DNA of 64,000 bases from an uncultured virus (IMG/VR IMGVR_UViG_3300044701_003393) (lineage: Duplodnaviria > Heunggongvirae > Uroviricota > Caudoviricetes), in the IMG/VR virus record IMGVR_UViG_3300044701_003393, one strand, 5' to 3'. A model generated the notes under the pieces. The model had not been told where the DNA came from, did not search any database, and worked only from the letters and a program-made list of their open reading frames with translations. Shown one piece after another: positions 1 through 28,908 of this stretch (position 1 is its first letter; each line of letters starts with the position of its first letter). A program made the position numbers and the translations under genes.

Positions 1-409
1 CCATCCAACGACCAACGAATGGTGAGATATACGTTGCTCCTGCCTTTGAAGCAAGTATTGCTTGTGCTACAGAGAACACCAGAGTTACATTTGTTTTGAT
101 ACCTTGCTTTGATAAGAAGTTACACGCTTTCAGTCCTTCTACAGTACAAGGAACTTTGATTGTAACTGCTGGTGCAATTGAGTAATACTTTTGTGCTTGT
201 GAAAGCATTTCCTCTGCTTCATCTGCGACAACTTCTGCGGAAATGCTTTCTAACTCTGGAAATGCTTGTGATATATTTTCGATAACTTCTTTTAATTGTC
301 TTCCACTTTTAAGAATCAAAGTGGGATTTGTGGTGACTCCATCCAATAGTCCAGTATCATATGCTGAACCAATTAACGAAACATCTGCTGTGTCTAAAAA
401 GATCTTCAT
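1..409 (-). CDS. talC: Transaldolase (TalC/FSA family), N-terminal part; continues past the window edge
   Basis: Manual translation from ATG at 409: MKIFLDTAD...GVTTNPTLI...IKVPCT...NVTLVFS...TYISPFVGR, the TalC motifs. Not in the ORF track because it is truncated. Confidence 0.95.
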
Positions 410-510
410 AAAAGAAAAAGAACTCATAAGTAATTATAAGAAGTTATACCTATAATGCACTGTTATGTTTTGATCTGCAAATATATAATACTGAGTTTAA
501 AGGAGTATCT

Positions 511-801
511 ATGATTACACTCAAAGACTTCTTTTCAAAACTCAGACTTGGATGGTTATACGTATTTGCATCATTTAAATTGTGGTGCAATTATATGAAA
601 AACGAATCTCAGTTTGACTTTTGGATAGATGGTTTTTATAACTTCGATAATGGTCCAGAAGAACTTGAATTATGTTGGAGTAACTATGAAATTGCAATGA
701 AAAATCAGAAGAAACCAAGAGGTAGAGGGAAACCAAAATATCCCAATAATATGGAAGGTTTTTTAAAGTGGCAAAGTGAGCGTAAAAACCGTTCAACTTA
801 A
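511..801 (+). CDS. Hypothetical protein, 96 aa
   Basis: ORF preceded by AAGGAG ribosome-binding site. Confidence 0.7.
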   Translation: MITLKDFFSKLRLGWLYVFASFKLWCNYMKNESQFDFWIDGFYNFDNGPEELELCWSNYEIAMKNQKKPRGRGKPKYPNNMEGFLKWQSERKNRST

Positions 802-830
802 TATATAATCTGTACACTCTATTGAAAATT

Positions 831-974
831 ATGAATTCAAAAACATTAGTACTTAAAGTACCAGACACTTACACTGCAGAACAAATTGCAACTTTACTTG
901 CAAATACTAAATCTCAACTTCCAGAAGTATCAATTGTAGTAGTTCCTCGTGAAGTAGAAATTTCTTGGTTATAA
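831..974 (+). CDS. Small hypothetical protein, 47 aa (MNSKTLVLKVPD...EISWL)
   Basis: Manually translated ATG..TAA ORF, below the track cutoff. Confidence 0.55.
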   Translation: MNSKTLVLKVPDTYTAEQIATLLANTKSQLPEVSIVVVPREVEISWL

Positions 975-983
975 TCTTATTTA

Positions 984-991
984 CATAAATA
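984..991 (+). promoter_or_regulatory. T4-type late promoter (CATAAATA)
   Basis: Matches NATAAATA just upstream of the first hairpin of the structured leader. Confidence 0.6.
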
Positions 992-995
992 ATCT

Positions 996-1219
996 TGCGA
1001 GGAGCAATCCTCTCATTAGAGATAAGATGTATTACTAAAAGATTCCAAAAATGGTTCTTTCATTAATGCTTCATCTCTAATCGGGTAATACAGTCCGATT
1101 TCAAAGAGAAATAATCCCAGACGATTCACCTATGGTCGTCTGTGGGCTCGATTCGTCTGGCATTATGTCAGGGAGGAATTGGATTGTATTGCTCTCCGAT
1201 TAACCTTTAGGAGAAAAAA
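996..1219 (+). ncRNA. Candidate structured 5' leader RNA, family unknown
   Basis: GAGGA-GCAA-TCCTC hairpin (999-1012); long hairpin 1015-1081; long stem 1078-1102/1176-1202 with G-U pairs; internal hairpins. Confidence 0.6.
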
Positions 1220-2047
1220 ATGGCAGATCCAGTTTATATGCCCGATCCTTGGGCAGCACTCTCAGCACAGCACTCAGACATCCGTAGAGAAGGTTCTGTA
1301 GAGCGTGGTGAGATCCGTTACGATGTTGCTACTCGTTCCGCTGACAACCGTTATGCTAATGCTATCGGTCAAGGCGATATTCGTAGAGAATTAGCAAATG
1401 GTTTTGGTGATACCAGATACGCTATTGCTGAGCATTCAGAAGCAACCAACCGTGATGTTCTGAACGTAGGACATAACACAGCAGTTAAAGTAGACGAAGC
1501 TGCTGATAAAATTCAGCAAAGAGCTACTGATTTCTATATTTCTGGTCAGGCAAGAGATTTTGATCAATCCCGTGATCTTGCTGCTTTAAGAGCAACTCAA
1601 GACCTTGCTGCTCAGAAACTCAGCAGTGAAATTCTTCTTGCCACTGAGAAGACTGCTACTGCTGCTGCACTTGAGTCCGCTAAGGTTGCTGCTGCTGTAG
1701 CACTTGGACAGTCACAACTCAGCAAAGAGATTGCTGAGAGCAAGTATGATCTCAGCAAGCAGGTTTCTTATGAAAATGAGAAGACCCGTGACCTCATCAA
1801 TTCTCTCAAGAATGATGAACTCAATCGTATGCTGATTGAGCGTAACACTGACCTCAACCACTGCCGCCACGACTATTGGGGTGCCAGAGATGGTCTCTTC
1901 AATAGCCAGTTCGCAGCACTGTCTTCACAAGTTAACTCTCAGTTAAATGCTTTAAACAGTCAGATTGCTGAGACCCGTCAGGGTATGGTTAACTTCGGAA
2001 CCATGGCTGGTGTTGGTCAGTCATCAACCAGCAATGCTGTACGCTGA
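1220..2047 (+). CDS. Helical, Ala-rich protein with 11-residue repeats, 275 aa
   Basis: AGGAG RBS; repeats DIRREGSVERG/EIRYDVATRSA/DNRYANAIGQG/DIRRELANGFG/DTRYAIAEHSE. Confidence 0.85.
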   Translation: MADPVYMPDPWAALSAQHSDIRREGSVERGEIRYDVATRSADNRYANAIGQGDIRRELANGFGDTRYAIAEHSEATNRDVLNVGHNTAVKVDEAADKIQQRATDFYISGQARDFDQSRDLAALRATQDLAAQKLSSEILLATEKTATAAALESAKVAAAVALGQSQLSKEIAESKYDLSKQVSYENEKTRDLINSLKNDELNRMLIERNTDLNHCRHDYWGARDGLFNSQFAALSSQVNSQLNALNSQIAETRQGMVNFGTMAGVGQSSTSNAVR

Positions 2048-2065
2048 TTTAGTTCAGTAGTTATC

Positions 2066-2099
2066 AGGGGGAGGTTTTTACCTTCCTCCCCCTTCTTTT
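2066..2099 (+). terminator. Intra-operon hairpin or partial terminator
   Basis: AGGGGGAGG...CCTCCCCCT 9-bp stem followed by TCTTTT. Confidence 0.6.
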
Positions 2100-2113
2100 A
2101 AAGGAGAGTAACT

Positions 2114-2758
2114 ATGGACTCAGCAGAAAGAAGACTTATTGATCTTTACAATCTTCTGGCACAATACCAGAGAAGTAATGATCCAAATCTGTTTGGAAAC
2201 ATTCAGTCTATTCGTGCAGAAATCACGGAGATGCTGAATAGTCGTGGTGGTGGAAATGACAACATTAATATTGTCATAGATGGTGATAACTGCCCCGATG
2301 AGTGCCCTCCAGGTCCACCAGGACCTCCAGGAGAGCAGGGACCACCAGGACCTCCAGGACCCCAAGGAGAACCAGGAGAAGCAGGAGAACAAGGTCCTCC
2401 AGGGGAGCAAGGACCACCAGGACCACAGGGGCCCCCAGGGGAACCAGGAGTGTGTACCTGCAAATGCAAAAGCATCTTGGTTTCAGATGATTATGCTGCT
2501 ACTTGCGATGATTACTATATCGGCGTCAACAGCAACGAACCTGTTACTATTACATTACCTGAAAACTGTACCGATTGTTGTGAGATCATTGTAAAAGCAG
2601 AAATGGGACCACCACTAGGAAATCGTAAAGTTACCGTCACAACTTCCGATGGAGCATTGATTGATGGTGCTGATGATTACATCATCACTACACCTTATGG
2701 CGTTATCACTGTTTTTTGTCGTGAAGGGGATTGGTATATTATCTCAGCAAAATTATAA
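2114..2758 (+). CDS. Collagen-like protein with Cys-rich flanks and a C-terminal beta domain
   Basis: About 15 Gly-X-Y triplets flanked by CPDEC and CTCKCK; AAGGAG RBS. Confidence 0.9.
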
Positions 2759-2760
2759 CA

Positions 2761-3543
2761 ATGAACTTCAACATCAAACCATCTAAACCAGATGAAAGAG
2801 ATTACATTTATAGAAGTGATAGTACAAGTTCCTTTCGGGAATATGTAGATCTTCGTGAGTGGGATACGATTGTTGAATCGCAAGATTCATTAAGCAGTTG
2901 TTCTTCCAATGCACTCACTAATGCATATGAACTATCAGTAAACCAATTATATCCAGAGTATTTCACACATCTCAGTCGGTTGTTTATTTACTATAACACC
3001 CGTGCTGAGTATGGAAATATTCAGGAAGATAATGGAATCTATCTCAGAGATGGTTTGAAATCGTTAGCAAAGTTTGGAGTTTGTTCTGAATCTTTGTGGC
3101 CTTATGATTTAGACAAGTTTGATGATCGTCCAACAGATGAATGCTATGAGGACGCAAAGAAAAGAACAGTTCTAAAGTATCAAAAACTTATCAGTGCTTA
3201 TTATATTACTGAAGTGCTGAATAACAACAAACCTGTTGTATTTGGAATGCAAATTTATGATAGTTTTATGGATCTAAATGAACGTATTTCTACTATACAT
3301 TTTCCTTCCAGAAAAGAAAAAAGTCTTGGTGGACACGCAATGTGTATGGTTGGTTATGATTTAGAAAAGAGATTATTCTTAGCAAAGAATAGTTTTGGAA
3401 CTAGCTGGGGGGATAAGGGATACTGTTGGATTCCTTTTGAATACCTCAAACAAGAAGGATACGACATTTGGACTTTTGACATATCCAACCAAACAGGAGA
3501 CTCAAATGTACTATCCGAGACCTTACTACCCATATTGCCATAG
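2761..3543 (+). CDS. Papain-like (C1A) cysteine protease
   Basis: VDLR..., QDSLSSC (catalytic Cys), GGHAMCMVGYD (His), KNSFG (Asn), WGDKGY; ATG at 2761 preferred over the track start 2731. Confidence 0.9.
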   Translation: MNFNIKPSKPDERDYIYRSDSTSSFREYVDLREWDTIVESQDSLSSCSSNALTNAYELSVNQLYPEYFTHLSRLFIYYNTRAEYGNIQEDNGIYLRDGLKSLAKFGVCSESLWPYDLDKFDDRPTDECYEDAKKRTVLKYQKLISAYYITEVLNNNKPVVFGMQIYDSFMDLNERISTIHFPSRKEKSLGGHAMCMVGYDLEKRLFLAKNSFGTSWGDKGYCWIPFEYLKQEGYDIWTFDISNQTGDSNVLSETLLPILP

Positions 3544-3643
3544 AAGATACTATGACTACTATGATCCTTATTATTATGGGCGTTATCCTTACTACGATAG
3601 ATATTGCCCTTATTATCCTTATTATCCGTACTATCCTTACTAA
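3506..3643 (+). CDS. Tyr/Pro-rich peptide, 45 aa (23 Tyr)
   Basis: AGGAG at 3495-3499 before ATG 3506; MYYPRPYYPYCHRRYYDYYDPYYYGRYPYYDRYCPYYPYYPYYPY. Confidence 0.75.
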   Translation: MYYPRPYYPYCHRRYYDYYDPYYYGRYPYYDRYCPYYPYYPYYPY

Positions 3644-3657
3644 GTAGGAGATTCAAA

Positions 3658-3936
3658 ATGCAATACCACTATCAACCATATCCTTATTATATGAGATATT
3701 ATAATATTGATCCTTATTATTATAGAAGATATTATTACAATCCATACTACAACTATCAAAAAAATATAATTGATAGTCAGATTGCAGATGTAGATCAAAG
3801 TATTAATAACTTTGGAGATATGACTGATGTAATTCAGGATTCTGTGATTAATCAATCAATGCATCCTGCTCCAGAATCTTCTAAGAATCCACCAGATGTT
3901 GTTCCGATAATAGAACCAATTCCTCCAGTATCTTAA
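3658..3936 (+). CDS. Protein with Tyr-rich N-terminus and Pro-rich tail, 92 aa
   Basis: AGGAG RBS before ATG 3658; MQYHYQPYPYYMRYYNIDPYYYRRYYYNPYY... Confidence 0.75.
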   Translation: MQYHYQPYPYYMRYYNIDPYYYRRYYYNPYYNYQKNIIDSQIADVDQSINNFGDMTDVIQDSVINQSMHPAPESSKNPPDVVPIIEPIPPVS

Positions 3937-3942
3937 TACTTT

Positions 3943-3976
3943 AAAAGAGTGATGCTACAGCACCACTCTTTATTTT
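3943..3976. terminator. Bidirectional rho-independent terminator
   Basis: AAAGAGTG...CACTCTTT inverted repeat between convergent genes. Confidence 0.7.
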
Positions 3977-4288
3977 TTATTTCATAAATTCTTCAAGACT
4001 TTCTGAAGAAGGTTCCTTATTCAAGGAAACACAATCATTTAAATAAGTCTTTTCAAGTTCCATCATTTCTTTTGCATCAAGAATAACCCATTCTTTTTTA
4101 ATATCAAGATAGGTTTCCCAAAGAGGTACTCCGTCAGATTCCATTCGCCTATACAGTCTACCTTGATAAGGTTCAAAGTATTGCCCAGAGAAGTGTCGGG
4201 ATACTTTGAGTTTTTGGTTTTTCAGTTCATCCAAAGTTTTTTGGAGATCCGAAATCTGTTGTTCGATTTGTTCAATAGTAAGAGACAT
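3977..4288 (-). CDS. Hypothetical protein
   Basis: 103-aa ORF in a tightly packed minus-strand run. Confidence 0.7.
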   Translation of the reverse strand: MSLTIEQIEQQISDLQKTLDELKNQKLKVSRHFSGQYFEPYQGRLYRRMESDGVPLWETYLDIKKEWVILDAKEMMELEKTYLNDCVSLNKEPSSESLEEFMK

Positions 4289-4292
4289 AATT

Positions 4293-4496
4293 TTATTTTG
4301 ATGTAGTATGTTGCTTTAAGGATATAATGCGATTTTGTAAATCTTCTATGTCCTTGTGAAGGACTTTTACTTCAGTTTCAAGTCTTGCAATATTTACAAC
4401 ATTAGTTGAAACAAATGAAGTCATAACACCAAACCATAACCATAATAGAACTTGAAGGGTTCTAACAATTTCTTTTTGTTTTTTTTTCCATATCAA
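4293..4496 (-). CDS. Hypothetical membrane protein (one TM helix plus coiled coil)
   Basis: Overlaps the upstream ORF by 4 nt; hydrophobic stretch. Confidence 0.55.
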   Translation of the reverse strand: MIWKKKQKEIVRTLQVLLWLWFGVMTSFVSTNVVNIARLETEVKVLHKDIEDLQNRIISLKQHTTSK

Positions 4497-4918
4497 TTGA
4501 CCATTACTTCAAAAAGATTTGTGCTTTCGTCAATCACCAGTTCTTTATCAAATAGTTCTACAAGATCTTCAAAGTAATCTTGAATTGCTTGATAACCCAA
4601 AGAGCATCCCATATCCCAAGCCTTATTAAAAATCTTATCTGCTTTTGGATGCCCTGTCATTCCATATTCTTCAATGAGATCTCTACGAAACTCATCCTGC
4701 AATCTTTTGTTTTCTTCATGATAATGTTTCATATGAGCATTAAATGAAACCTCATCAAGAACCTTCTCTTCTACACATCCCTTTGGAGGTTCAAAATCAT
4801 CTTCAAACTGTCTTTTCATTCCTACCATTACTCCCTTTCGGTAATAATAGATGGTCATATAATCGTCTTTCTTTGGTATTGATACCGAAGTCTCTTGATA
4901 ATATGAAAAAGGTTTCAT
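4493..4918 (-). CDS. Hypothetical protein
   Basis: 141-aa ORF. Confidence 0.75.
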   Translation of the reverse strand: MKPFSYYQETSVSIPKKDDYMTIYYYRKGVMVGMKRQFEDDFEPPKGCVEEKVLDEVSFNAHMKHYHEENKRLQDEFRRDLIEEYGMTGHPKADKIFNKAWDMGCSLGYQAIQDYFEDLVELFDKELVIDESTNLFEVMVN

Positions 4919-5129: not shown

Positions 5130-5249
5130 TTAAAAGTACATCATCGAAAGAGTGAATACAACAAACACAATAACTGTAAATATCATAATTCCTACACCAG
5201 CCCAAACCACCCAGGGCTCCATAGGTTCGTAATCGCGGTTATGAGACAT
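5130..5249 (-). CDS. Small single-TM protein, 39 aa
   Basis: MSHNRDYEPMEPWVVWAGVGIMIFTVIVFVVFTLSMMYF; a second 21-aa hydrophobic ORF follows at 5060-5125. Confidence 0.5.
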   Translation of the reverse strand: MSHNRDYEPMEPWVVWAGVGIMIFTVIVFVVFTLSMMYF

Positions 5250-5823
5250 AAAATTTGAGGTTTTCTAAAAGTGTTTGAAGTTCTTGTAGGGTGGCGTCAT
5301 TTTTGAGAGTGTTTGCTCTATTACTTATGACCCACACATTACCTTTTATGTATCCCTTTGAGGGGTCAATACGATCTAAAGATGGAGAATTTCCTTGCTG
5401 ACTTCCCTTACCACGATGACATTCTAATGGTATTCCAAGAAGAGGACACTTATCTGGAATAATAATATCTTTTTGTTCTATTGCGAAGTCTAATCCTTTC
5501 TGCTTTGCTCTATATTTTGCTCTAGACCACATGGCAGATACTTCATCAATACCTTTCTCCCTCCTTTCTTGATGAAGTTCTTTTAATCTACATCCACAAG
5601 ATTTTATTTCTGCTTTAGATCCTATTATATAATCCTTACGAATTTTGTCCTTTATATTACCACATTCACACTCACATTTAAAATAAATGCTTTTCTTATC
5701 ACTATACTGTTCTAAAATAGTAAGTCTCCCACAAGTCTGACCGACATATGAGAGACTTGATTTAGGGCGACCCCCTTTTAATCGGGGGTCATTTTTTAAT
5801 CCTTTATTCCAAACCATTAGCAT
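5239..5823 (-). mobile_element. Free-standing HNH homing endonuclease downstream of psbD
   Basis: WNKG motif, CECECG/SCGC zinc motifs, SLDRIDPSKGYIKGNVWVISNRAN nuclease motif. Confidence 0.8.
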
Positions 5824-9355: not shown

Positions 9356-9492
9356 AAGATGTCGTTTGGTCTGTTAATATTCTTCTTGGTATTTGTTTGG
9401 TTGGTGTTGCTTGGGCTATCTACAAAATCCTACTCATCGCAAATCAGGAAAATGTATCAGTACAAAATAAAGAAGATTCACAGGGTCATTGA
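9352..9492 (+). CDS. Small TM protein, 46 aa
   Basis: ATGA overlap with the previous ORF; MKDVVWSVNILLGICLVGVAWAIYKILL... Confidence 0.5.
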   Translation: MKDVVWSVNILLGICLVGVAWAIYKILLIANQENVSVQNKEDSQGH

Positions 9493-9793
9493 TGGAGACA
9501 CTGTTGACGTTGATATTGATTTAGGATTTAGCATTACACTCAGACAAAGAGTTCGTCTCAAAGATATTGATGCAGCAGAGACAAGAACTAAAGACTTAGA
9601 AGAAAAGAAAAAAGGTATTGATGCAAGACTTTGGTTAGAAAAAGAACTTGCAAGAGAAGGTGACTGGATTATCGAAACACATAAAGAAGACAAGTACGGA
9701 AGAATACTTGGAGTTCTTTATTGTGTTGGAGATCCAGTCACTGTAAATGAAAGAATGTTAAATGAAGGTATTGCGTATCCTTACATACTATGA
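9452..9793 (+). CDS. Thermonuclease (SNase)-like nuclease
   Basis: RVIDGDTV, RVRLKDIDAAE, DKYGRILG; likely start ATG 9452. Confidence 0.85.
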   Translation: MYQYKIKKIHRVIDGDTVDVDIDLGFSITLRQRVRLKDIDAAETRTKDLEEKKKGIDARLWLEKELAREGDWIIETHKEDKYGRILGVLYCVGDPVTVNERMLNEGIAYPYIL

Positions 9794-11062: not shown

Positions 11063-11536
11063 TTAAGTTCTTTTCCAAAGATCACCCTCTGCTTTTCTTC
11101 TTCTTGCTAATCCTGCCTCTACATTACTTCCAGGATTTCGGTAAAGATATAAAGCATCAGGAACTTTATCCCATTCCTTATTCTTTAATACTCTAGTTAT
11201 GGTATTAAAATTGGGACCCCCGTAGAAATTAGCACCAAGATTATAAGCAAAAGAAAGAAGTGCTCCTTGTTGATTTTCATTCATCTCATTCCAATAAGGG
11301 ATTTTTTGTAGTGCAGGAATAAATTTTGTTTCAATATCAAACATTAACAGATCATCTGCTTCCTGTTGTGTAATGGTATTACCCATTATAAATCCAGTTC
11401 CATCTTTTCTGCTAGTAGAACCCCAACCTATTGTGATTGGAGCACCTCCAGTCAAAGGATCTGGATATGCTCTTAATTTACAACCTTCAAATACTTTTAT
11501 CAGTTCTACCCCTTTAACTGGAATAGAACTAATTAC
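11063..11536 (-). CDS. GH24 phage lysozyme domain with no canonical start; likely reached by -1 frameshift
   Basis: Frame reads ..GVELIKVFEGCKLRAYPDP..TIGWG..ALLSFAYNLG..GLARRRKAE; the first ATG/GTG/TTG is TTG 11455, after the catalytic Glu. Confidence 0.85.
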   Translation of the reverse strand, partial: VISSIPVKGVELIKVFEGCKLRAYPDPLTGGAPITIGWGSTSRKDGTGFIMGNTITQQEADDLLMFDIETKFIPALQKIPYWNEMNENQQGALLSFAYNLGANFYGGPNFNTITRVLKNKEWDKVPDALYLYRNPGSNVEAGLARRRKAEGDLWKRT

Positions 11537-12234
11537 TTTTTTGCATCAAAAATACGACCCCATCCAGTTCTATCTTTTCCTTTATCCAACCATCGTTGCA
11601 TTAGATCTGATCTCTTATATACAGCACCTTTACCATTTGTAACTGGTCCCGTATATCCATCGTTGAGAGAACCATAAGGATCATTTACAACATAATCATC
11701 ACCTTTCTTACCGATCACTACAAGTAAGTGCCCGCCAGTAGGTGCAGATAAAGAACCGCGATGAAGAATCCCGATAACGACAGGTCTCCCAGCGGCAAGC
11801 TCACGATCAAGATCAGCAAAAGAAAGATTGTAAACAAATCGTGACTTAATACCATAACCTTCCAAAACTTTTGTTTGGACGGTGTGATCAGTCGTATCAC
11901 CAATTGCGAATACCTTTTGAATATAGGCATCATCGCCTGTTGCTCCTTGAAGTGTGCCTGGTTTGAAATACTCTAGACACATCGCACAAGAAGATGAATT
12001 ACAGGTTCTTTGTGCATCTCTGTAATTATCTGTTTGTGGGAACCAAGGAACATTAAGAACTCCTGGAACTACTGGTTCTACTTTTGATCTATAAATTTTT
12101 ATCCAACTCGTTTCATCATCAAGCAAGTCTGGATTTTTAGATTCCAAATCCTTTTCAAACTGCTCTACTGCTGCAACGTGCTTTGGATTTTTAGGATCGT
12201 AGTGTAAAAAGAAATTATGGAGATCTATTTTCAT
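11533..12234 (-). CDS. C39-like peptidase (cell-wall hydrolase)
   Basis: VPWFPQ..CNSSSCAM, GGHLLVVIG, VNDPYG. Confidence 0.85.
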   Translation of the reverse strand: MKIDLHNFFLHYDPKNPKHVAAVEQFEKDLESKNPDLLDDETSWIKIYRSKVEPVVPGVLNVPWFPQTDNYRDAQRTCNSSSCAMCLEYFKPGTLQGATGDDAYIQKVFAIGDTTDHTVQTKVLEGYGIKSRFVYNLSFADLDRELAAGRPVVIGILHRGSLSAPTGGHLLVVIGKKGDDYVVNDPYGSLNDGYTGPVTNGKGAVYKRSDLMQRWLDKGKDRTGWGRIFDAKK

Positions 12235-13688: not shown

Positions 13689-15161
13689 TCAGAACGTGAA
13701 CTTGGTCTGGATTACACCACCCCACTTAGCAGAGTCCTGATAACGCTGATTGTTATCAACGTAGAACAGAGCAGGAGTGATGCTGATGTTATCAGACACT
13801 TGGAACTTGTAGAAGATTTCAACAAGAGTGGCGTCATCTACACCTTTGGTATCAGCAGTAGGTGCTTGACCCACAGCAACTCCAGCAGAGTTACCCTTGA
13901 GGAAGACATCGCTCCACTGAAGACCAGCCATCCAGGACTGACTATCAGTAGCATCAGTAACACCAGTAGTACCATTAACCCAGTTGTAACCGTAACCAGC
14001 ACTGATTGAAGGAATCCAACCAGACTGTTCGGGTTGCCAGTAAGCGTTAACTGCAAGACCATTAGAAGTCTGACCGTCTACAAGAGTACCAGTAGCACCC
14101 AGGAGACCGTTGTAGGAGCGAGGACGGGTGCCTTCAGTACCATAGCGGTATCCAACACCAACACCCCAGTTCTTACCACGATAACCGACTTGACCCAGCA
14201 GGTTCAGAGCACCATCTTCATTGAAGACGCCAGTAGAAGAGTTATCACCGTCCTGAGCGACATAGTTCAGACCAGCAACAAATCCACCATTACCAGCATA
14301 CTGAATACCGAAACCAGCACCGAGTGCCTTATTATATACACCAGGAGTACCAGCAGTAGCAAAGAAGTCAAGGATTTCCGACTTATATGCGGAAGGAACC
14401 CAAGCAATCTCAGTGTTACGGACTTTAGCACCAGCAGTGATGGTGGTAGTGTCGTTAAACACAGGGAACTGATAATACAGACGATCAATAACTACGTTAT
14501 CGCCAACTTCGCTAGAAGTGTTATCTGCTTTATCCAGTTTGAAAAGGGAACCCGAAGAAGCAAAAGGATCCGTGCTGAAGTTAGAAGAACGCAGACGAGT
14601 ACGGAGCAGGTCCTTACCAGTGAAGCTGGTATCGAAGTTCAGACGGACATCATAATTAAATGCGGTGTCGCCAACGTTTCCACCGTCATTAGTTTCAAGT
14701 CCAGGAACTCCACCCAGAACAAAGGTAGCCTCACCACGAAGTTTCGTAGTGGTAGAGAACTGAGTTGCTTCCAGTTGACCGACTTGTGCTTCCAGTTTAT
14801 CTACACGACCACGGATAACGGCAAGTTCTTGAGCGAACTCTGCCTGAAGACGCTTCAGTTCATCGGTAACTTCAGTCACACGATCCAGGCAAGCATTCAG
14901 AAGAGCAGCTGCCTCATAACGGGTCATTGACTGACCACCACCATAAGTGCCGTTAGGATAACCAGCAACACAACCATAACGCTCTACAAGGTTGTTGAGT
15001 GCTTGATATGCCCAATCGGTAGGACGAACATCAGAGAACTGTGAGATGCTCGTAACTTGAGATTCTACATAAGGTCCATAAGTGCCATAGGGTTCTGCGA
15101 ACGCAGCACCAGCGACCAGTGGAGTTGCAGCAAGGGTTGCTGCGAAAGCGGATTTAAACAT
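13689..15161 (-). CDS. Cyanobacterial outer-membrane porin (SLH plus OprB-like, Som type)
   Basis: Signal peptide; FSDVRPTDWAYQAL...GCVAGYP SLH motif; QFSTTTKLRGE; C-terminal Phe; GAGG RBS before ATG 15161. Confidence 0.92.
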   Translation of the reverse strand: MFKSAFAATLAATPLVAGAAFAEPYGTYGPYVESQVTSISQFSDVRPTDWAYQALNNLVERYGCVAGYPNGTYGGGQSMTRYEAAALLNACLDRVTEVTDELKRLQAEFAQELAVIRGRVDKLEAQVGQLEATQFSTTTKLRGEATFVLGGVPGLETNDGGNVGDTAFNYDVRLNFDTSFTGKDLLRTRLRSSNFSTDPFASSGSLFKLDKADNTSSEVGDNVVIDRLYYQFPVFNDTTTITAGAKVRNTEIAWVPSAYKSEILDFFATAGTPGVYNKALGAGFGIQYAGNGGFVAGLNYVAQDGDNSSTGVFNEDGALNLLGQVGYRGKNWGVGVGYRYGTEGTRPRSYNGLLGATGTLVDGQTSNGLAVNAYWQPEQSGWIPSISAGYGYNWVNGTTGVTDATDSQSWMAGLQWSDVFLKGNSAGVAVGQAPTADTKGVDDATLVEIFYKFQVSDNISITPALFYVDNNQRYQDSAKWGGVIQTKFTF

Positions 15162-15270
15162 AAGTACCTCTATATTTTCTCGCAGAGTTTTCCTGCGGAT
15201 GTAAGGAGTTTCGACATAACTCCGTTTATTCAGTGAGTCAACAAGTATTTGAGGTATCGTCACCAGAACG

Positions 15271-15304
15271 TATTTATTGTACGCCAGATTTGATCTGGTG
15301 TCAA
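15271..15304 (-). promoter_or_regulatory. Early and late promoters for the porin gene
   Basis: TTGACA-17-TACAAT with overlapping AATAAATA. Confidence 0.65.
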
Positions 15305-16098
15305 GTGGTCTGTTGTGCTGCTGAGTTTTCAGTTATCCTCCCAAGGTAAGGATCATAATTCATATAGTCTTTAATATTAATATCAGATCCTGCTTGCTGC
15401 CAATAGTTCAACAGAGCATCGTGAGGTGCCTTATGGAAAATTCCAAGATGTTCTGGATGAATTGCAGATCCCATTTCAAGGTTATAAAGGAAAAGAGGAA
15501 TAGTATAAGTTTTACCCGTCTCTAAAATAGTATCTTCAGAAACCGCTCTAGGTTTTACACCATTATCCAATTTGTACTTATCGCCACGAATATGATGCTT
15601 CATCATCTTTGCAGCGTGGTGACGAGTAATCAAATAAATTGCAGCAGAAAAATCGTTGATGAATTTTAAGTGCAACTTAACATGGATATCTCCAGTACAA
15701 ATTGTAGTTAACTGAACACAATCCCAATCATATGGCACTTCAACAAAAAAATCAGTCCAGGTAAAATTCCAATACCTAACAATGTCAAAATTAACATCAT
15801 CCTCAAGAATCAAGCAATAATCATCTGTACTATTTTCATAGAAATGTTTAATTGCTTTGAGATGTGACATACAACACCCCAATTCATTTTGTGACACATT
15901 ATCAGGAATTCTTCCTTTTAAATGACTTGATACATCATCCTCTCTCCCGTCATATCCAGAAATACGAGTATGATTCTCAATTTGCCAATATTTAAATTGG
16001 GTTTCCATATACTCACGCCTGTGAGTATCTGCATCAAGGTTGATCCAGTAAATTTGCGGAATTCCTTTAAGTTTATATGCAGACTTATTCTTGTCCAT
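15301..16098 (-). CDS. Glycosyltransferase family 25
   Basis: IYWINLD..RR, ELGCCMSH, LILEDDV. Confidence 0.85.
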   Translation of the reverse strand: MDKNKSAYKLKGIPQIYWINLDADTHRREYMETQFKYWQIENHTRISGYDGREDDVSSHLKGRIPDNVSQNELGCCMSHLKAIKHFYENSTDDYCLILEDDVNFDIVRYWNFTWTDFFVEVPYDWDCVQLTTICTGDIHVKLHLKFINDFSAAIYLITRHHAAKMMKHHIRGDKYKLDNGVKPRAVSEDTILETGKTYTIPLFLYNLEMGSAIHPEHLGIFHKAPHDALLNYWQQAGSDINIKDYMNYDPYLGRITENSAAQQTT

Positions 16099-16909
16099 CA
16101 ATAATTCTTGTCCAGTCATCGGGAATTAAATCTTTAGTATTGTGATCTTTTGTATATCCAGTTTTACCAAACCACTGGACGGGTGCAATAACTTTTTTAT
16201 TCTCATTAGAAGATAACCAAGCAGCCCACCAAGAATAAGAAGAGTTTGCAATAATAAAATCATTGCAGAGAGACATCAAGCAAAGATCCACTCGATTATC
16301 AGTATTCTCAGAAACCATAAAACGATCATCTGAGAATATCTCTTGAGACTTACACCATTCAGGATCATCAGAAAAAATAATCACACTTCGATCATTATCA
16401 AAATGCTTTAATGCTGCTTTATAATATTCAAGTGGAAGATTAAAATGATTATCGCTATTTACAATATAGTCAGTTCTTCTTACGTGAAGTGCCAGAGGAT
16501 TTTCAATAGAAGAAATCATTTCTTGGCAGGGTTTAAGAATCTCATCCTTAAAAGTAAAATCTTCGCGGATCTCCGACTCAATATGTTTAAAGTATTTTTC
16601 TGTCTGAAAATATCCCTGAAGACTCACATGATCCGGACACATTGAAAAAAGTTCCTCATCGAAATGAAAATATCTTTCTTGAACGGTAGGGGAATGTCCG
16701 TTATTCAGAAGTCCAACATTAACTTTCAGATCAAAAGAATCAAAAAGTTCTGTTCTGAGTTTGTTGCCGATACCATCATCAACTGCTTGAGAATGATTTG
16801 GAATACAAATATCTGCTCCTACATTTCTCGCAATTCCTTTAAGTGAGGCATACTGAAACATTTGGTTTGCCAAACGTCCCATTCTACCTAGTGCATTAAA
16901 ACCAATCAT
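16085..16909 (-). CDS. GT11 alpha-1,2-fucosyltransferase-like
   Basis: GRLANQMFQYA, GYFQTEKYF, HVRRTDY, IIANSSYSWW. Confidence 0.9.
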   Translation of the reverse strand: MIGFNALGRMGRLANQMFQYASLKGIARNVGADICIPNHSQAVDDGIGNKLRTELFDSFDLKVNVGLLNNGHSPTVQERYFHFDEELFSMCPDHVSLQGYFQTEKYFKHIESEIREDFTFKDEILKPCQEMISSIENPLALHVRRTDYIVNSDNHFNLPLEYYKAALKHFDNDRSVIIFSDDPEWCKSQEIFSDDRFMVSENTDNRVDLCLMSLCNDFIIANSSYSWWAAWLSSNENKKVIAPVQWFGKTGYTKDHNTKDLIPDDWTRIIDGQE

Positions 16910-17712
16910 CGTATTTGACTTCTGCGATTTTTTACATAGTCCTGATTTTCATAATATCCCATCAATTGATTTCTGTCAAATGTTTTAATTTGATTCCAAA
17001 GATGGTAGTTATTATTAAAGTTGGGGTTGCTAAACCAAGAATTATGAGTTCTTGAGTGTTCTAAATGGTAGACATAATTATCAATTCTTCCAATACGATT
17101 ACCAAGAACGCTCATACGATAATAAAATTCATCATCCTCACATCCCCAGGAAATAAAGTTTTCATTCATCATATAAGACTCAATATACTTCTTTCGGTTT
17201 ACAAATTGAGTCCATCCAATAGTGGAGTTAGAAAGTGATTTATTCTGATCTAAAATAGAGGTATCCAAAGTGCTTACAAATCTCTCATAGATCTCTGGAC
17301 CGTATGATGCTTTCCATTGATAAATTCCGCATCCATAAGGATAGACTACATCTACTCGATCCTCATTAATTGCAGTATATGCCTGATAATATGAATCGAT
17401 TGGAAGAATACAATCAGCATCATAATTTGCAACAACTTTTGTAGATGATGCAACAATTAAATCATTTAAAACTTTACTTTTACAAAAAAGGGGTTCTTGA
17501 GACTCTTCATACAAATACTCAAGATTTGAAGTATCCACATATTTTCTAATTTCAGGAACTGCTCTAAACTGAAATGTAGGACGACTTGAAACTTCTTTGA
17601 CTATTACCTTTGCAGGAATATGTCTAAGCAAATAAGAGACTGAAGAAATGATATTTCTCAATCTATCTTCAGTCTCAATTCTAGTTGGAATTAAAAAAGT
17701 TAAGTCCATCAT
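16906..17712 (-). CDS. GT2/GT7-like glycosyltransferase
   Basis: DAD motif; NENFISWGCEDDE; YHLEH. Confidence 0.75.
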   Translation of the reverse strand: MMDLTFLIPTRIETEDRLRNIISSVSYLLRHIPAKVIVKEVSSRPTFQFRAVPEIRKYVDTSNLEYLYEESQEPLFCKSKVLNDLIVASSTKVVANYDADCILPIDSYYQAYTAINEDRVDVVYPYGCGIYQWKASYGPEIYERFVSTLDTSILDQNKSLSNSTIGWTQFVNRKKYIESYMMNENFISWGCEDDEFYYRMSVLGNRIGRIDNYVYHLEHSRTHNSWFSNPNFNNNYHLWNQIKTFDRNQLMGYYENQDYVKNRRSQIR

Positions 17713-18578
17713 TTTTGTATTCTCTCCTCTGGAATTGGTTCAATGATCCAAGATTCTGGAATTAAATCTTTAAGATTATTAAATGAAAGATTTTTACCAA
17801 ACCAAGGAGTTTGAGTAATAACTTTTTTGTTTGAATTTTTTTGCAACCAAGCACCCCACCAAGATAGAGAGCTATTTGCAATAATGGCATTACTACACAT
17901 AGACATTAAACATAGATCATAAAATGGAACTAATGATCTTTCCATTTGTCCTGCACCATTTAAAGTTTGATGAGGATAATAAACCCTCGTTTCAGATAGA
18001 TAAAATCTATCACTTTGAAATAGTTTTTGTTCCTTTACCCAGTCAAGATCATCAGAACAAATTAAAACTGGTTGATTGTCCGTGAAATATTTTTCAAAAA
18101 GATATTCATAATGTTCTATTGTTGGCATTGGATACCAATTTGGACGACCAGTATTATCTCCCCTACGAATGTGAAGTAAGGTAATATCTCCCTTAAACTG
18201 ACTCATAAACTCAGCACAAGGTTCATAGATATCATCTTTAAATTGATAGTCTTCACGAATAGACTCTTCAATATGTTTGAAATATTTTTCACTTTGACGA
18301 TATCCATCAATATTTACATTATCAGGACAATCGTTAAATAGTTTTTCATCAAATTCAAATCCAGGTTCATCATAAGTTGGACCATTAACTAGACCTGTAT
18401 GTTTTAAATTAGTAAGTTTAAATGCTTCAAAAAGACCATAATTTGCATATGTAGGAGTATCCTCTGGAGGAATGCACCATTCCAAGTTATTGTTTGATGC
18501 AATTCCTCTCAGAGCAGCATATTGAAACATTTGGTTTCCCAAACGTCCATTTGTTCCAAGACGATTATATCCAATCAC
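17709..18578 (-). CDS. GT11 fucosyltransferase-like, second paralog
   Basis: GRLGNQMFQYA, HIRRGD, IIANSSLSWW. Confidence 0.9.
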   Translation of the reverse strand: MIGYNRLGTNGRLGNQMFQYAALRGIASNNNLEWCIPPEDTPTYANYGLFEAFKLTNLKHTGLVNGPTYDEPGFEFDEKLFNDCPDNVNIDGYRQSEKYFKHIEESIREDYQFKDDIYEPCAEFMSQFKGDITLLHIRRGDNTGRPNWYPMPTIEHYEYLFEKYFTDNQPVLICSDDLDWVKEQKLFQSDRFYLSETRVYYPHQTLNGAGQMERSLVPFYDLCLMSMCSNAIIANSSLSWWGAWLQKNSNKKVITQTPWFGKNLSFNNLKDLIPESWIIEPIPEERIQK

Positions 18579-18600
18579 AGTTTACTCTCTACTATTAATA

Positions 18601-19686
18601 TCAGAAGTTAGGAAGTGGTTCCCAATTAGCAAGTCTTTCCTTTTTTTCAATCTGGTATGAAATCCAATCATAAGTCTTGGCAATACCTTCCTCAAGAGAC
18701 ATTCCATAATCCCATTGAAGTTTTTCACGAATCAGATCATTATTTGAATTGCGACCACGAACACCAAGAGGACCATCAATGTGCTTTTTGGTGATTGTCT
18801 TACCAGCAACTTTAGCGGCAATATCTGCTAGTTGATTAATCGTAACCATTTCCTCAGAACCAATGTTAATAGGTCCCAAGAAGTCAGACTCCATTAGACG
18901 ACGTGTTGCTTCCAGACACTCATCAATATACAAGAATGAACGAGTTTGTTCTCCATCGCCCCAAATCTCAACTTCACCGCCATCTTCTGCATATGCCACT
19001 TTACGACACATTGCAGCAGGAGACTTCTCTTTACCACCTTCCCAAGTGCTCTCAGGACCATAGATGTTATGGAAACGTGCAATACGGCAAGGAATTTCGT
19101 GATTGCGATTAAATGCCAAGTACAGTCGCTCAGAGAATAGTTTTTCCCAACCATATTCAGAATCAGGTCCAGCAGGATAAGCATCCGATTCTTTTAGTCC
19201 AGGATTGTTTACATCCATTTGAGCGTACTCTGGATACATACATGCACTGCTACTGTAGAAAATCTTAGTCTTATTAACTTCCTTTCGAGTATTAAGATTC
19301 AGTTGAGCTTTTAGAATATTGAGGTTGATAGTAGCAGAATTATACATTACCTCAGAATCATTTTCTCCACTGAAAATATATCCAGCTCCACCCATATCAG
19401 CAGCATACTGATAGATCTCATCAAAAGAATCCACATATTTTTCCGGAACCAAATTGTGGAAATTACCAGACTCACCTTTATATTCAATAATTCTGGTAAC
19501 AAAATCAAAATCAGTCAGATCTCCAACAATAAATTCGTTTGCTTGTGTTTTAGAATACTCAGGATACTTAATATCAACACCACGAACCCAGTATCCTTCC
19601 GAACGAAGTCTTTTAACCATATGACTTCCAATAAATCCACCAGCACCGCAAACAAGAGCAGTTTTTTTATATTGACCCATTTTCAT
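18601..19686 (-). CDS. NAD-dependent epimerase (GDP-mannose 3',5'-epimerase-like)
   Basis: GAGGFIG, AADMGGAG, YSSSACMYP, YGWEK, GVRGRNS. Confidence 0.88.
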   Translation of the reverse strand: MKMGQYKKTALVCGAGGFIGSHMVKRLRSEGYWVRGVDIKYPEYSKTQANEFIVGDLTDFDFVTRIIEYKGESGNFHNLVPEKYVDSFDEIYQYAADMGGAGYIFSGENDSEVMYNSATINLNILKAQLNLNTRKEVNKTKIFYSSSACMYPEYAQMDVNNPGLKESDAYPAGPDSEYGWEKLFSERLYLAFNRNHEIPCRIARFHNIYGPESTWEGGKEKSPAAMCRKVAYAEDGGEVEIWGDGEQTRSFLYIDECLEATRRLMESDFLGPINIGSEEMVTINQLADIAAKVAGKTITKKHIDGPLGVRGRNSNNDLIREKLQWDYGMSLEEGIAKTYDWISYQIEKKERLANWEPLPNF

Positions 19687-19743
19687 AAAAAATAAAACCT
19701 CTATGTATAGTAATATGTAAAAGCAAAAATGTCAAGAAAACAT

Positions 19744-20706
19744 TTAAATTATATTTATTTTTTCCTCAATGATGTCCATAACGTATTGTGTATCATTACA
19801 AAATCTTTCAAATTCACTGCAAAGAAAATAATCACATTCAACATCCAGATTATGTGCAAGAGAATCAGTGGGATTATTATTAAATGAAATTATATGTTTA
19901 TTCTTATTCATAAAGTTATCCTTTGTGGCACAAAAACAAAAAGGACCAGATTGCTTTCCGATTATAAGATCACAAAAATTACTCAAATAAGAAATTTCAT
20001 TCAAATCACAAATACCATTTGTTCTATCATTCCAAGGGATGTTAAGGCGAATAGGAATATCATATTTGACGGTAATGTCGTCAGTAAACAATATATTTTT
20101 AATTTCACTATCAAATTTCTTAGTACAAATAAAATCATACTCAGGATACTTTTCGGCAAAATACAAAATAATATCTTTCATATCACCAGGAATTGACTGT
20201 CCTGACATTGGAAATCCATTACAAAATAATATTTTCTTGGTGTTTCCTCTTTCTTCCAAAAACTTTTTATGATTTTCTAAATTAAAACATTCAAAGTTAA
20301 TTTCAGGAACATAATTAGACTTTTCCTTTAACTTCAAAGAAGTCCCAAAAGTATCATTAATTTTCTGAAAAATAAACTCCCATTCCAGACAAAGAAGATC
20401 CAAACTTATTCCAATACCATCAACTTGAAAATATGGAGGTTCAAAAGAACAAGCTGGAGAATAAGCTCCACTCCAAGTATTAATATTGAGAGTATTCTCT
20501 TCTTCTACAAATTTATGTACGTTGTGTTCTAACTTATATTGACCCAAACAAGGAATATTCAAATCCAATAAAACCTTTGGATGATTTTCGTGATAATATC
20601 CAAAATTGAATCCAGTTAATTCTGTTGTTATTTGTCTGACAAATTCTTTACTAGAAAATAAATCACCGCAGTGAAATCCATTAAAAAAGTTTATAGTTTT
20701 GTTCAT
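19744..20706 (-). CDS. Hypothetical protein, possibly glycosyltransferase-like
   Basis: 320-aa AT-rich ORF in the glycan island. Confidence 0.7.
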   Translation of the reverse strand: MNKTINFFNGFHCGDLFSSKEFVRQITTELTGFNFGYYHENHPKVLLDLNIPCLGQYKLEHNVHKFVEEENTLNINTWSGAYSPACSFEPPYFQVDGIGISLDLLCLEWEFIFQKINDTFGTSLKLKEKSNYVPEINFECFNLENHKKFLEERGNTKKILFCNGFPMSGQSIPGDMKDIILYFAEKYPEYDFICTKKFDSEIKNILFTDDITVKYDIPIRLNIPWNDRTNGICDLNEISYLSNFCDLIIGKQSGPFCFCATKDNFMNKNKHIISFNNNPTDSLAHNLDVECDYFLCSEFERFCNDTQYVMDIIEEKINII

Positions 20707-20731
20707 GATTAATTTAGTTCAGATTTATATA

Positions 20732-21898
20732 TTATACATCCATTATTGAAATTAATTTATCAATTCTTTCTTTGTTTACGAACTGACTATTACCAACATA
20801 CACACCGTTTTGGTGAAGAGTAAGGACATTGGGAGTTTCTTTTTTGGTACAAAGTTTATAATTTTTAAATGCAGGATGTAGAAGAATATTTCCACTAATG
20901 ATAGGGCGATATTCTATGCCACTCATTTTTAATTTTTCTTTCACCAAGGAAATAGAAGAACTTTCTTTGGTGATAATAGGAAAACAAAAACTACTATTTC
21001 CCCTTTGGTATTCTGGGATAAAATAGGACTCGGATTTAAAAATTTTTTCCCACCAATACTTAAAATTTTCTTTGCGAATCTGGATGTTTTTATCCAACTT
21101 TTTCAACTGAGACAATCCAAGAACAGCACAAACCTCATGATTTCTAAGATTAAACCCTTCTGTCATAAACAAAAAGGTTGGATCAATATCTGGATTTTCT
21201 TCGGAATACTTTTTAAACATATGAGGAGATGCTTCCCTTGCCATACCATGACTACGCTTCATTCTCATCAACTCATAAAGTTCGGTATTATTCGTACAAA
21301 CAACACCACCTTCGATTGTTGTAATATGATGTCCGAAATAAAAACTAAAAGTCGATCCTACAGAATTTATTCCACGTTTATTTCCATCAGGCCCTCGTAC
21401 ACCATGTGATTCGCATATATCTTCCATAACCAATACGTTTGGAAAAATTTCACGAACCTTTTCCACATTAGAAGAAAGTCCAATCAAATGTGTGATGAAG
21501 ACTGCTTTAATATCCGGATGTTCGGATGCAATATACTTTAATTCATCAATATCAAAAGAAAAATTTCTAAGATTAATATCACAAAAAATAGGTTGAAGAT
21601 TTGCTTGAATTACAGGAGCAATATTAGTCATCCAAGTACAAGATGGAACAAGAACTTTATCCCCATCCTTTAATCCATAATATTCCTTTACGGCAGAAAC
21701 AAGCAAAGTATTTGCGGTGCTGCCGCTAGAAACATATAAAGAATGTTTAACACCTAACCACTCAGACCACTTATTTTCAAATTCACGAACTTTTGGTCCA
21801 TTAGTAAGTTTGTCACTAGTGAGAAGAAACAATGCCATCTTAAAACGATCAGAAAACGTAATCGTGTTTTCCATCAGTGGCCAAGTTGATTTAGACAT
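20732..21898 (-). CDS. DegT/DnrJ-family PLP enzyme, His-type; probable ColD-like 3-dehydratase
   Basis: SSGSTAN, EDICESHG, SFYFGHHITTIEGG with His at the usual Lys position. Confidence 0.8.
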   Translation of the reverse strand: MSKSTWPLMENTITFSDRFKMALFLLTSDKLTNGPKVREFENKWSEWLGVKHSLYVSSGSTANTLLVSAVKEYYGLKDGDKVLVPSCTWMTNIAPVIQANLQPIFCDINLRNFSFDIDELKYIASEHPDIKAVFITHLIGLSSNVEKVREIFPNVLVMEDICESHGVRGPDGNKRGINSVGSTFSFYFGHHITTIEGGVVCTNNTELYELMRMKRSHGMAREASPHMFKKYSEENPDIDPTFLFMTEGFNLRNHEVCAVLGLSQLKKLDKNIQIRKENFKYWWEKIFKSESYFIPEYQRGNSSFCFPIITKESSSISLVKEKLKMSGIEYRPIISGNILLHPAFKNYKLCTKKETPNVLTLHQNGVYVGNSQFVNKERIDKLISIMDV

Positions 21899-22817
21899 AA
21901 TTCTGATTTAAATGATTAACAATTTTTACAATACCTCCTCTTAAGGAAGTTTTTGGTTTCCACCCTAGAGAGTTCAATTTACTAACATCCAAAACTCTTC
22001 TTGGTGCTCCGTTTGGTTTTGATGTATCCCATACTATTTTACCACTATATTCAATAATATTGCAAATCTCATCTACTAACTCCACAATACTAGTTTCAAT
22101 ACCAGTTCCAATATTAATAAACGAATCTGTTTTTTGAGTCATTAAAAATATTGCAGCATCAGCGAGATCATCAGAATACAAAAACTCTCTTTTTGGAGAT
22201 CCGTCACCAAAACATTCAACTTGAGGAACGTTATCTTTTTTTGCTTTCCAAATTCTATAGACCAAACTTGACATTACGTGTGCGTTTGGAGAATCGACTT
22301 TATTTTCTATTCCATATATGTTGCAAGGATTCACAGAAATAAAGTCAGATCCATATTGTTTTTGATATGCCTCACAAAGTTTAATTCCAGATACTTTAGC
22401 AATTGAATAAAACTCGTGAGTTTTTTGAAAGTTACCCATCATTAGATTTTCTTCCTTTATGGGCATAGGACTTTCTTTAGGATAAACGCAGGAAGAAGCA
22501 AAAAACATTAACTTCTTAACATCATACTTATGAGAAGATGAAATTACATTATTTTGAATGTTTAGATTATCCAACAAATAATTCACCGGATTGTTAATAT
22601 TATCCAGTATTCCACCGCACTTTGCTGCAGTTAAAAAAACATACTCAGGTCTTACAGATTCAATAAAATCATCAGTTGCTTGTTGATTTGTAAAATCTAC
22701 AAGATGACGGGTGCCTTTCATAATATTTGTGTAACCTTTACTTTCAAGATTTCGAACAATTGCAGAACCAACCATTCCGTTGGCACCAGCAACTAAGATT
22801 CTAGAATCACTTTTCAT
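21891..22817 (-). CDS. fcl: GDP-L-fucose synthase / ColC-like epimerase-reductase
   Basis: [26 protein letters not shown]; likely start ATG 22817. Confidence 0.88.
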
Positions 22818-23811: not shown

Positions 23812-23820
23812 AAACTTAAC

Positions 23821-28904: not shown

Positions 28905-28908
28905 AGTT

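Follow-up and report, generated by a model that had tools for sequence, protein, structure and literature searches.

A conserved rod, collagen-like and tyrosine-rich protein cassette of large T4-type phages and its possible role as an accessory virion fibre kit

In a stretch of 64,000 nucleotides from an uncultured virus (IMG/VR record IMGVR_UViG_3300044701_003393; this whole stretch is called the window), which is part of a large T4-type cyanophage genome, five adjacent genes, here g1 to g5, run against the prevailing direction of transcription. What do these genes make? A sequence-only reading of the window had described them as a late cassette for a repeat-containing helical protein, a collagen-like protein, a papain-type protease and two Tyr-rich proteins, and had proposed that they build a protease-matured, cross-linked and ultraviolet (UV)-absorbing coat or matrix. 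We find that the cassette is a conserved module of large phages. Our own reading, to which we assign a probability of about 0.4, is that it encodes a kit for an accessory fibre or whisker on the virions of large T4-type phages. This reading is favoured because of the predicted fold of the C-terminal domain, or knob, of g2, the late-type promoter in front of g1 and the rod shape predicted for g1. The strongest functional clue is the g2 knob.

The collagen-like protein and its C-terminal knob

The Pfam family Collagen (PF01391) matched residues 66-112 of g2 with 42 bits (cut-off 27.2; E 7.7e-11). As the sequence-only reading had noted, cysteines flank the collagen tract; these residues, Cys64 and Cys118, are nearly invariant in 31 homologues, and the number of Gly-X-Y (GXY) triplets varies between relatives from 6 to 24. 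An AlphaFold2 (AF2) model of g2 consists of two N-terminal helices that form a helical hairpin, a collagen stretch modelled at low confidence and a C-terminal beta-sandwich modelled at high confidence, with predicted local distance difference test (pLDDT) values above 90 over residues 119-214. This knob is the most conserved part of the protein. Comparison of residues 114-214 with solved structures gave VIA Z scores of 12.4 for 24qj, 12.2 for CBA120 TSP4, 11.7 for a KP1 baseplate protein, 10.6 for the Pa223 capsid spike and 9.2 for a chaperone-substrate entry; the virion proteins among these are a tailspike of phage Solidus, the N-terminal region of CBA120 TSP4, a Klebsiella phage baseplate protein and the capsid spike. 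All strong solved matches are virion fibre, spike or baseplate proteins. Foldseek gave matches with E values from 1.9e-6 to 1e-3, among them the T4 baseplate entry 5iv5 and gp9, and in BFVD at least 432 viral proteins matched, including a Gp9/Gp10 baseplate protein, minor tail proteins and collagen-repeat proteins. A BFVD fold match to a protein of phage Atu_ph07 was also obtained. PHROG profiles matched the knob weakly (tail-fibre proximal subunit and baseplate protein), and the collagen tract matched 21 PHROGs, mostly tail fibres. On these models, the C-terminal domain of g2 is predicted to have the gp9/gp10/TSP4 fold of virion fibres and spikes.

Among the domains that g2 residues 114-214 resemble are those of T4 gp9/gp10, the N-terminal XD domains of CBA120 TSP4 (1qex, 5iv5, 2fl8, 7rej and 7rfv) and the Pa223 spike (9ny6), which superpose with Z scores of 10.6-12.2 and root-mean-square deviations of 2.2-2.8 A over 93-96 residues. 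Such domains link fibres to the virion or connect them with each other. Compared with these proteins, g2 shows 13-23% identity, carries the domain C-terminal to a collagen stalk and has no baseplate context. The g2 protein also resembles the collagens of phages and prophages, such as the prophage collagens of E. coli O157:H7 (PMC3368898), in having a phage-encoded GXY tract between non-collagen ends. It differs from them in being short (214 aa), in its Cys clusters at both ends of the tract, in its gp9/gp10-type C-terminal domain and in its location outside the tail gene cluster, always beside g1. The sequence-only reading had named a match of the first two genes to ordinary tail-fibre components as something that would count against it; this is in part the case, the fold of the g2 knob being that of ordinary virion fibre, spike and baseplate proteins.

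In many relatives of the cassette, an additional gene, g2b, lies between g2 and g3 and encodes a protein of ~203-210 aa (L005:7501-8109, L036:8180-8803 and L047:7629-8258). It combines the same C-terminal knob as g2 with a non-collagen stalk, and its N-terminus recalls, in our judgement, those of tail fibres. The gene is absent from the window.

The rod protein, the tyrosine-rich peptides and a common tag

The description of g1 as an 11-mer-repeat helical protein agrees with what we found. Self-similarity within g1 is maximal at shifts of 11 and 22 residues, the lengths of homologues differ in 11-aa steps, and the AF2 model is one 254-residue helix (residues 10-263, mean pLDDT 80). The hydrophobic period is 3.66, with a power of 43.5 at period 3.667 compared to 14.1 at 3.5, and g1 models as a long rod with hendecad periodicity. 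Its relatives form 924 clusters at 90% identity, all named hypothetical and none with a Pfam family, and in a protein atlas its matches were unnamed viral clusters only. The last ~25 residues are nearly invariant while overall identity is 33-88%. When three g2 chains were modelled in complex with three copies of g1 residues 180-275, the score was 0.00, which weighs neither for nor against an interaction. The lengths of g1 and of the collagen tract do not increase together (Spearman -0.33, p 0.058, 34 length pairs), and the idea that the two are parallel, length-matched components was dropped.

A period of 3.66 together with self-similarity at 11 and 22 residues is common to membrane-coating 11-mer helices and to hendecad filament proteins. 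Both features, the former over the whole helix, would be in keeping with an intracellular role, in which g1 is either an intermediate-filament-like phage filament or an 11/3 amphipathic helix that covers membranes or granules in the way of apolipoproteins, perilipins and late embryogenesis abundant (LEA) proteins, and recruits the Tyr-rich peptides via the tag described below. The dedicated regulation of the cassette and its position among the auxiliary host-type genes talC, psbD and psbA point the same way. However, no LEA, apolipoprotein or filament family of Pfam or NCBIfam matched g1, its obligatory partner, g2, combines a collagen stalk with a knob of virion type, for which no intracellular use is obvious, and a late promoter fits particle assembly. 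We consider an intracellular role of g1 quite unlikely.

As described earlier, the 45-aa product of g4 is 51% Tyr (23 residues; there are also two Cys), and g5 is a second Tyr-rich protein, with 48% Tyr in its first 33 residues and a Pro-rich tail. Among 15 distinct homologues of g4, differences at the three codon positions number 1204, 1030 and 2123, so that the third position changes about twice as often as the others; 21 distinct homologues of g5 gave 5639, 4584 and 7531, again with third-position enrichment. In the Tyr frames, this is the substitution pattern of coding sequence, and the expectation that the Tyr-rich open reading frames (ORFs) would prove conserved was borne out. No family in Pfam, PHROG or NCBIfam matched g4, and g5 had no relevant match in Pfam or NCBIfam.

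Clustering by blastp placed g5 together with g1. In hhalign, residues 34-68 of g5 aligned with residues 241-275 of g1 (probability 96.4%, E 1.3e-9, 43% identity), and by this alignment a homologous C-terminal tag of 35 aa is common to both proteins. Searching 1.84 billion proteins with a tag profile gave 168 representative clusters at 50% identity. The 150 clusters listed include two classes, namely rods of ~180-450 aa that end in the tag and peptides of ~50-130 aa, most with Tyr/Arg/Pro-rich N-termini. The profile also returned three very long proteins, without a clean matched stretch; no protein of more than 482 aa was seen to carry the g1 tag, which is weak evidence. In two complete genomes, tag and knob are confined to the module, and among 185,579 prokaryote genomes none had a confirmed locus with the g1 tag pattern.

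A tag common to a large and a small subunit could also belong to a phage polymer system of a kind not described so far. The highly expressed hendecad rod g1 and small Tyr/Arg/Pro-rich subunits of the g5 class would co-assemble via the tag and disulfide-locked collagen fibres would decorate the polymer, giving a hair coat on the particle or an extracellular adhesive mesh that is switched on by the RNA leader or by a LuxR-type regulator. The tag, which is rich in Q, N and G, would act as a cross-beta zipper or as a site of papain-type cutting or ligation in the manner of sortases. Type IV pilins with their prepilin peptidase and sortase pili are built from major and minor subunits with a common conserved segment, on which a dedicated peptidase acts. 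By analogy, the module would have a highly expressed major subunit (g1) and a minor one (g5) with a common terminal segment, and a cysteine peptidase in the operon. It differs from pilus systems in that sequence and fold are unrelated, the tag is C-terminal and of the Q-, N- and G-rich composition given above, and no membrane or secretion component is present. Such a polymer system is, in our estimate, rather improbable.

The common tag also bears on the coat or matrix that had been proposed for this locus, since it would suit co-polymerisation. According to that proposal, self-assembly of the products, whether inside the cell or once it has lysed, would surround particles with a cross-linked coat or matrix, with g1 as the bulk, the collagen and the Tyr/Cys-rich proteins as cross-linkers and the protease as maturase. 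The hairpin that follows g1 in most loci examined implies abundant g1, Cys clusters flank the collagen tract, g4 has two Cys in addition to its Tyr content, and no product has an evident signal peptide (N-termini judged by eye), so that assembly would be cytoplasmic or post-lysis. The resemblance to the Bacillus spore coat and exosporium lies in collagen-like and small Tyr-rich proteins occurring together; BclA, CotC and their relatives are collagen-like and Tyr-rich proteins of these structures. One BFVD fold match of the knob is a giant-virus protein whose annotation names a BclB C-terminal domain. In contrast, no component matched a spore-coat or exosporium family in Pfam or NCBIfam, so that the likeness to spore coats drawn earlier finds no support there; g4 and g5 match no family, the g1 tag was not confirmed in any of the prokaryote genomes, and the best matches of the knob are virion proteins. 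Moreover, the module contains no tyrosine-oxidising or transglutaminase gene, the protease is optional, and the literature gave no report of an occlusion-type matrix in tailed phages, of which we likewise know none. UV absorption and cross-linking had been read from composition alone and are weakened as proposals. A coat or matrix is less supported than a virion fibre, and we regard it as rather unlikely.

Conservation, control and setting of the module

In IMG/VR, relatives of g1 were found at 52 loci and relatives of g3 at 33, largely on the same contigs. Removal of identical loci left 45 distinct ones, 37 of which have at least 4.5 kb after g1 and were counted as complete modules. All 37 contain g2; a C1 peptidase is present in 23, a small ORF with at least 20% Tyr in 29 and a short tag-bearing ORF in 25, and g2, g3 and a Tyr-rich ORF occur together in 20. 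The synteny expected across viral metagenomes was thus found, with an order that partly changes: it is g1, g2, (g2b), g3, g4, g5 in close relatives and g1, g2, Tyr-rich gene, unknown gene, g2b, g3 at 33-48% g1 identity. Nearly everywhere, the block opposes the flanking - strand genes. The carriers are T4-type phages of ~160-400 kb. One complete genome, of 258,362 bp and with terminal repeats, contains a close relative of the cassette along with a gp23-type capsid gene and a photosystem gene, and a gp23-type capsid protein is encoded in four of five carrier records. Among four distant carriers (250-400 kb, one rated 100% complete), three have a gp23-type capsid gene and none has a photosystem gene. 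The module is therefore not specific to cyanophages, the setting in which it had first been placed.

Searches of the five proteins found no match in PADLOC and, in NCBIfam, matched the collagen tract only, far below cut-offs. No description of the cassette was found in the literature, in a search whose coverage excludes most subscription journals. Some modules carry further genes. In seven distant loci (for example L036:7548-8165, L041:9541-10200 and L049:8047-8529), an unassigned module gene encodes a conserved N-terminus of ~75 aa and an acidic low-complexity tail, with no family match. After g5, some close relatives (L005:9300-9719 and seven other loci) have a gene, absent from the window, for a 140-aa protein with a DUF7201 coiled coil, a C-terminal hydrophobic segment and a weak PHROG holin match. 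In one sub-lineage, the gene after the module is ferritin/Dps-like (Pfam Ferritin, E 1.1e-21; L022:9859-10290, L024:3408-3839 and L028:4542-4973).

The Pfam family Peptidase_C1 (PF00112) matched g3 with 48.4 bits (cut-off 20.7), and Q41, C47, H192 and N210 are invariant in 11 homologues, so that the earlier account of a C1A-type protease with intact Cys, His and Asn is upheld. The closest solved chain is 3ois, which carries the tool label 'Cysteine protease' and which we take to be xylellain; residues 7-238 of g3 align with it (E 7.7e-37) with the catalytic residues in register. g3 is accordingly predicted to be a papain-family (C1) cysteine peptidase resembling the xylellain-type bacterial enzymes. 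It lacks the first ~36 residues of the 3ois chain and lies in a phage operon. The protein starts 28 residues before the mature-domain alignment, cathepsin S aligning from g3 residue 29, and this short N-terminus leaves no room for an inhibitory propeptide; the signal peptide and propeptide of a secreted C1A zymogen were not found (N-terminus judged by eye). Maturation by the protease had been seen as part of the scheme, and as an obligatory step it fails, the protease being absent from 14 of the 37 complete modules.

The 379 bacterial relatives of g3 (~40% identity) raise the question of whether the cassette is a chance association, without joint function, of a fibre gene, a protease that strayed in from bacteria and ORFs of low complexity. 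In none of 80 bacterial loci kept does a module gene adjoin the g3 homologue, so that these neighbourhoods offer no clue to function, and protease and Tyr-rich ORFs are each absent from some modules. Yet g1 and g2 stay together in every complete module, and the three classes in 20 of 37, at g1 identities down to 35% and despite changes of order; g1 and g5 have a homologous tag, knob and tag occur only inside the module in two complete genomes, and the block has one promoter, one leader and one terminator. Because of the common tag and the co-occurrence, we hold a chance association to be unlikely. In 6 of the 80 bacterial loci (for example L129:5753-6079), the peptidase gene is followed by a 108-aa ORF whose product looks to us like a chagasin-type cysteine-peptidase inhibitor; the phage module has no such ORF. 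The C1 gene of Burkholderia phage FLC9 was considered as a module and rejected, as it stands alone among oppositely oriented genes.

The layout of the block in the window is given in Table 1. AGGAG precedes g1, g2, g4 (7 nt upstream of the ATG) and g5, in agreement with the count of four reported earlier, and g3, which lacks it, starts 2 nt past the g2 stop.

Table 1. Coordinates of the genes and of the predicted control elements of the cassette in the window.
Feature	Position	Strand	Remarks
T4-late-type promoter 8-mer CATAAATA, predicted	984-991	+	7/8 identical to TATAAATA
Structured 5' leader RNA of g1	992-1219	+	RNAalifold, covariation, covariance model
g1	1220-2047	+	275 aa
GC-rich hairpin and U-rich run after g1	2066-2100	+	Attenuator or partial terminator, predicted
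g2	2114-2758	+	214 aa
g3	2761-3543	+	260 aa counted from ATG
g4	3506-3643	+	45 aa; 38-nt overlap with g3 end
g5	3658-3936	+	92 aa
Two-way terminator-like hairpin	3944-3971	both	Between g5 and convergent gene 3977-4288

The leader is a structured RNA element of 243 positions, of which the window has 228 nt between the 8-mer and g1. RNAalifold placed 61 pairs in ten sequences; 95.9% of cells are paired, compared to 38-54% with slid partners, and 15 pairs change on both sides, compared to 2-4 when slid, a value reached by none of 500 shuffles. A covariance model (R1) found the leader in 16 of 40 sources, once per source and always just before g1; six of these 16 had not been used in model building, and the copies outside the window include L001:5763-6003 and L015:3572-3814. 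The model found no other copy in the 64-kb window, and positions 400-4600 gave no match in Rfam 15 at E <=1. The 8-mer directly abuts the leader in all 16 leader-bearing sources, as TATAAATA in 12, as ACTAAATA in three and as CATAAATA in the window; from the T4 late consensus, we take it to be a putative T4-type late promoter. In the last helix of the leader, a CUUUCU tract pairs with the AAGGAG ribosome site, and part of this tract is lost in the window. Masking of the ribosome site by this helix suggests riboswitch-like or thermometer-like control. Distant modules are without the leader. Instead, a co-oriented LuxR/GerE gene, absent from the window, lies just upstream in 14 of the 45 distinct loci (for example L036:5140-5901, L037:5110-5835, L038:4919-5680 and L034:4624-5724). 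All four of the encoded proteins tested have a C-terminal GerE helix-turn-helix (57.9-60.3 bits, cut-off 23.5) and an N-terminal domain that matched no family.

The hairpin after g1 (positions 2066-2093) has a predicted folding energy of -18.3 kcal/mol (z -3.7). A similar hairpin with a U run lies 3' of g1 in most related loci examined, with a sequence that varies by lineage, which implies that g1 is made in excess of the downstream products. At the right end of the block, the terminator-like hairpin would fold on both strands (-12.9 kcal/mol, z -5.6 on the + strand; -16.5 kcal/mol, z -6.0 on the - strand), and U runs follow on both. The sequence-only reading had bounded the five genes by a late promoter with a structured leader on the left and a bidirectional terminator on the right, with a hairpin after the first gene; the boundaries and the co-orientation of the genes at 1220-3936 against the - strand were confirmed, and the block appears, from its sequence, to be a self-contained cassette downstream of a late-type promoter.

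When non-overlapping ORFs of 110 aa or more are counted, the window has 65, and 60 of them lie on the - strand; the + strand has the other five, namely g1, g2, g3, the frame of g5 and 9359-9793. Two small + strand ORFs lie upstream of the promoter, at 511-801 and 822-974, and, being co-oriented, make the + strand block longer than five genes. The former, conserved in 10 loci, encodes a run of hydrophobic residues near the N-terminus and a basic KKPRGRGKPKYP segment; the latter is present in three other loci. The - strand genes include talC, psbD, psbA, a lysozyme gene, a long sugar/lipopolysaccharide (LPS) cluster, nrdAB and gp41-type, UvsX-type, gp43, gp44 and gp45 genes. The record closest to the window, a 115-kb fragment, has 76% of sampled words in common with it. 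A second cysteine-peptidase-like gene (11533-12234, - strand; Pfam Peptidase_C39_2, E 4.4e-13) adjoins the phage lysozyme gene at 11063-11455. At 13689-15263 (- strand), a porin-like gene with an S-layer homology domain and an OprB domain lies at the edge of the ~17-kb sugar/LPS biosynthesis cluster (15301-32268). Between the cassette flank and psbD, a 194-aa ORF (5239-5823, - strand) had no Pfam match at E <=1e-5; by eye its C-terminus resembles an HNH-type homing endonuclease, and a relative adjoins psbD in locus L011.

A possible accessory fibre and its place in phage biology

If the cassette is an accessory fibre or whisker kit, it might work as follows. The T4-type late promoter would drive one late transcript through the dedicated structured leader, and the hairpin after g1 would let only part of the transcripts pass, leaving g1 in excess. 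g1 would form long rods, ~38 nm if the 254-residue helix is straight, and g2 a short collagen triple helix with a Cys cluster locking each of its ends. The beta-sandwich of g2 would be of the kind by which T4 gp9/gp10, CBA120 TSP4 and the capsid spike join fibres to virions or to each other, and the tag of g1 and g5 may dock both proteins on one common site. Where present, the C1 peptidase would process one of the components by trimming or maturation. Together, the proteins would form an appendage resembling a whisker or a hair, to which the Tyr/Arg/Pro-rich peptides would give a sticky surface. Gene order, conservation, folds, the common tag and the RNA structure come from the analysis itself; virion location, docking, cleavage and adhesion are steps that we infer. 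Between relatives, both the number of 11-mers in g1 and the number of GXY triplets in g2 vary, which we counted in favour of a fibre because exposed fibres vary in this way.

Several observations weigh against a virion fibre. In the complete relative G006, the module lies at ~34-36 kb and gp23 at ~99 kb, far from the structural genes, and controls of its own (the leader or a LuxR-type gene) are unusual for structural genes. As the most conserved part of g2, the knob lacks the variability that a receptor binder would be expected to show. An excess of g1, as implied by the hairpin, would suit a bulk polymer no less than a fibre, the g1 period of 3.66 would also fit an 11/3 amphipathic helix, and no structural relative of g1 was found (nothing below E 4 in a BFVD fold search). 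The protease is missing from 14 of the 37 complete modules and the Tyr-rich ORF from eight. In phage records, g1 had no match (tblastn against 50,697 records) and neither had positions 900-4100 (megablast), in a collection that may omit records near the genome of the window; the knob had one weak sequence match, in an unannotated Silvanigrella phage record. As these sequence searches found no cultured-phage homologue of g1 or the knob, no virion proteome bears on these families, and a virion location of the products is without direct support. The probability beyond the readings named here belongs to functions we have not thought of.

A virion fibre would have precedents. Atu_ph07, a T4-related jumbo phage, has capsid-associated hairy whiskers, and few phages with such structures are reported to have been described (PMC6102473). 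The whiskers of T4 (fibritin) and of the jumbo phages Atu_ph07 (PMC6102473) and vB_PcaM_CBB (PMC5259590) are long and thin accessory appendages on T4-superfamily particles, with elongated helical proteins, as the favoured reading would have it. The genes for the whiskers of the hairy phages are not known. Compared with T4 fibritin (wac), g1 had no Pfam match and no recognisable foldon, and its period is 3.66 and not the heptad value of 3.5.

For many genes of the large T4-type phages that infect aquatic bacteria no use is known, and the cassette is abundant in metagenomes, where its 924 g1 clusters and 168 tag clusters stand without annotation. Whatever the final structure, the occurrence of one tag in two unlike proteins, the half-tyrosine peptides, the optional papain-type enzyme and a new structured leader with covariation can each be studied in their own right. 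If the products do form an extra fibre, the cassette would name genes behind whisker-like or hair-like appendages, which influence how particles adsorb, aggregate and survive in water.

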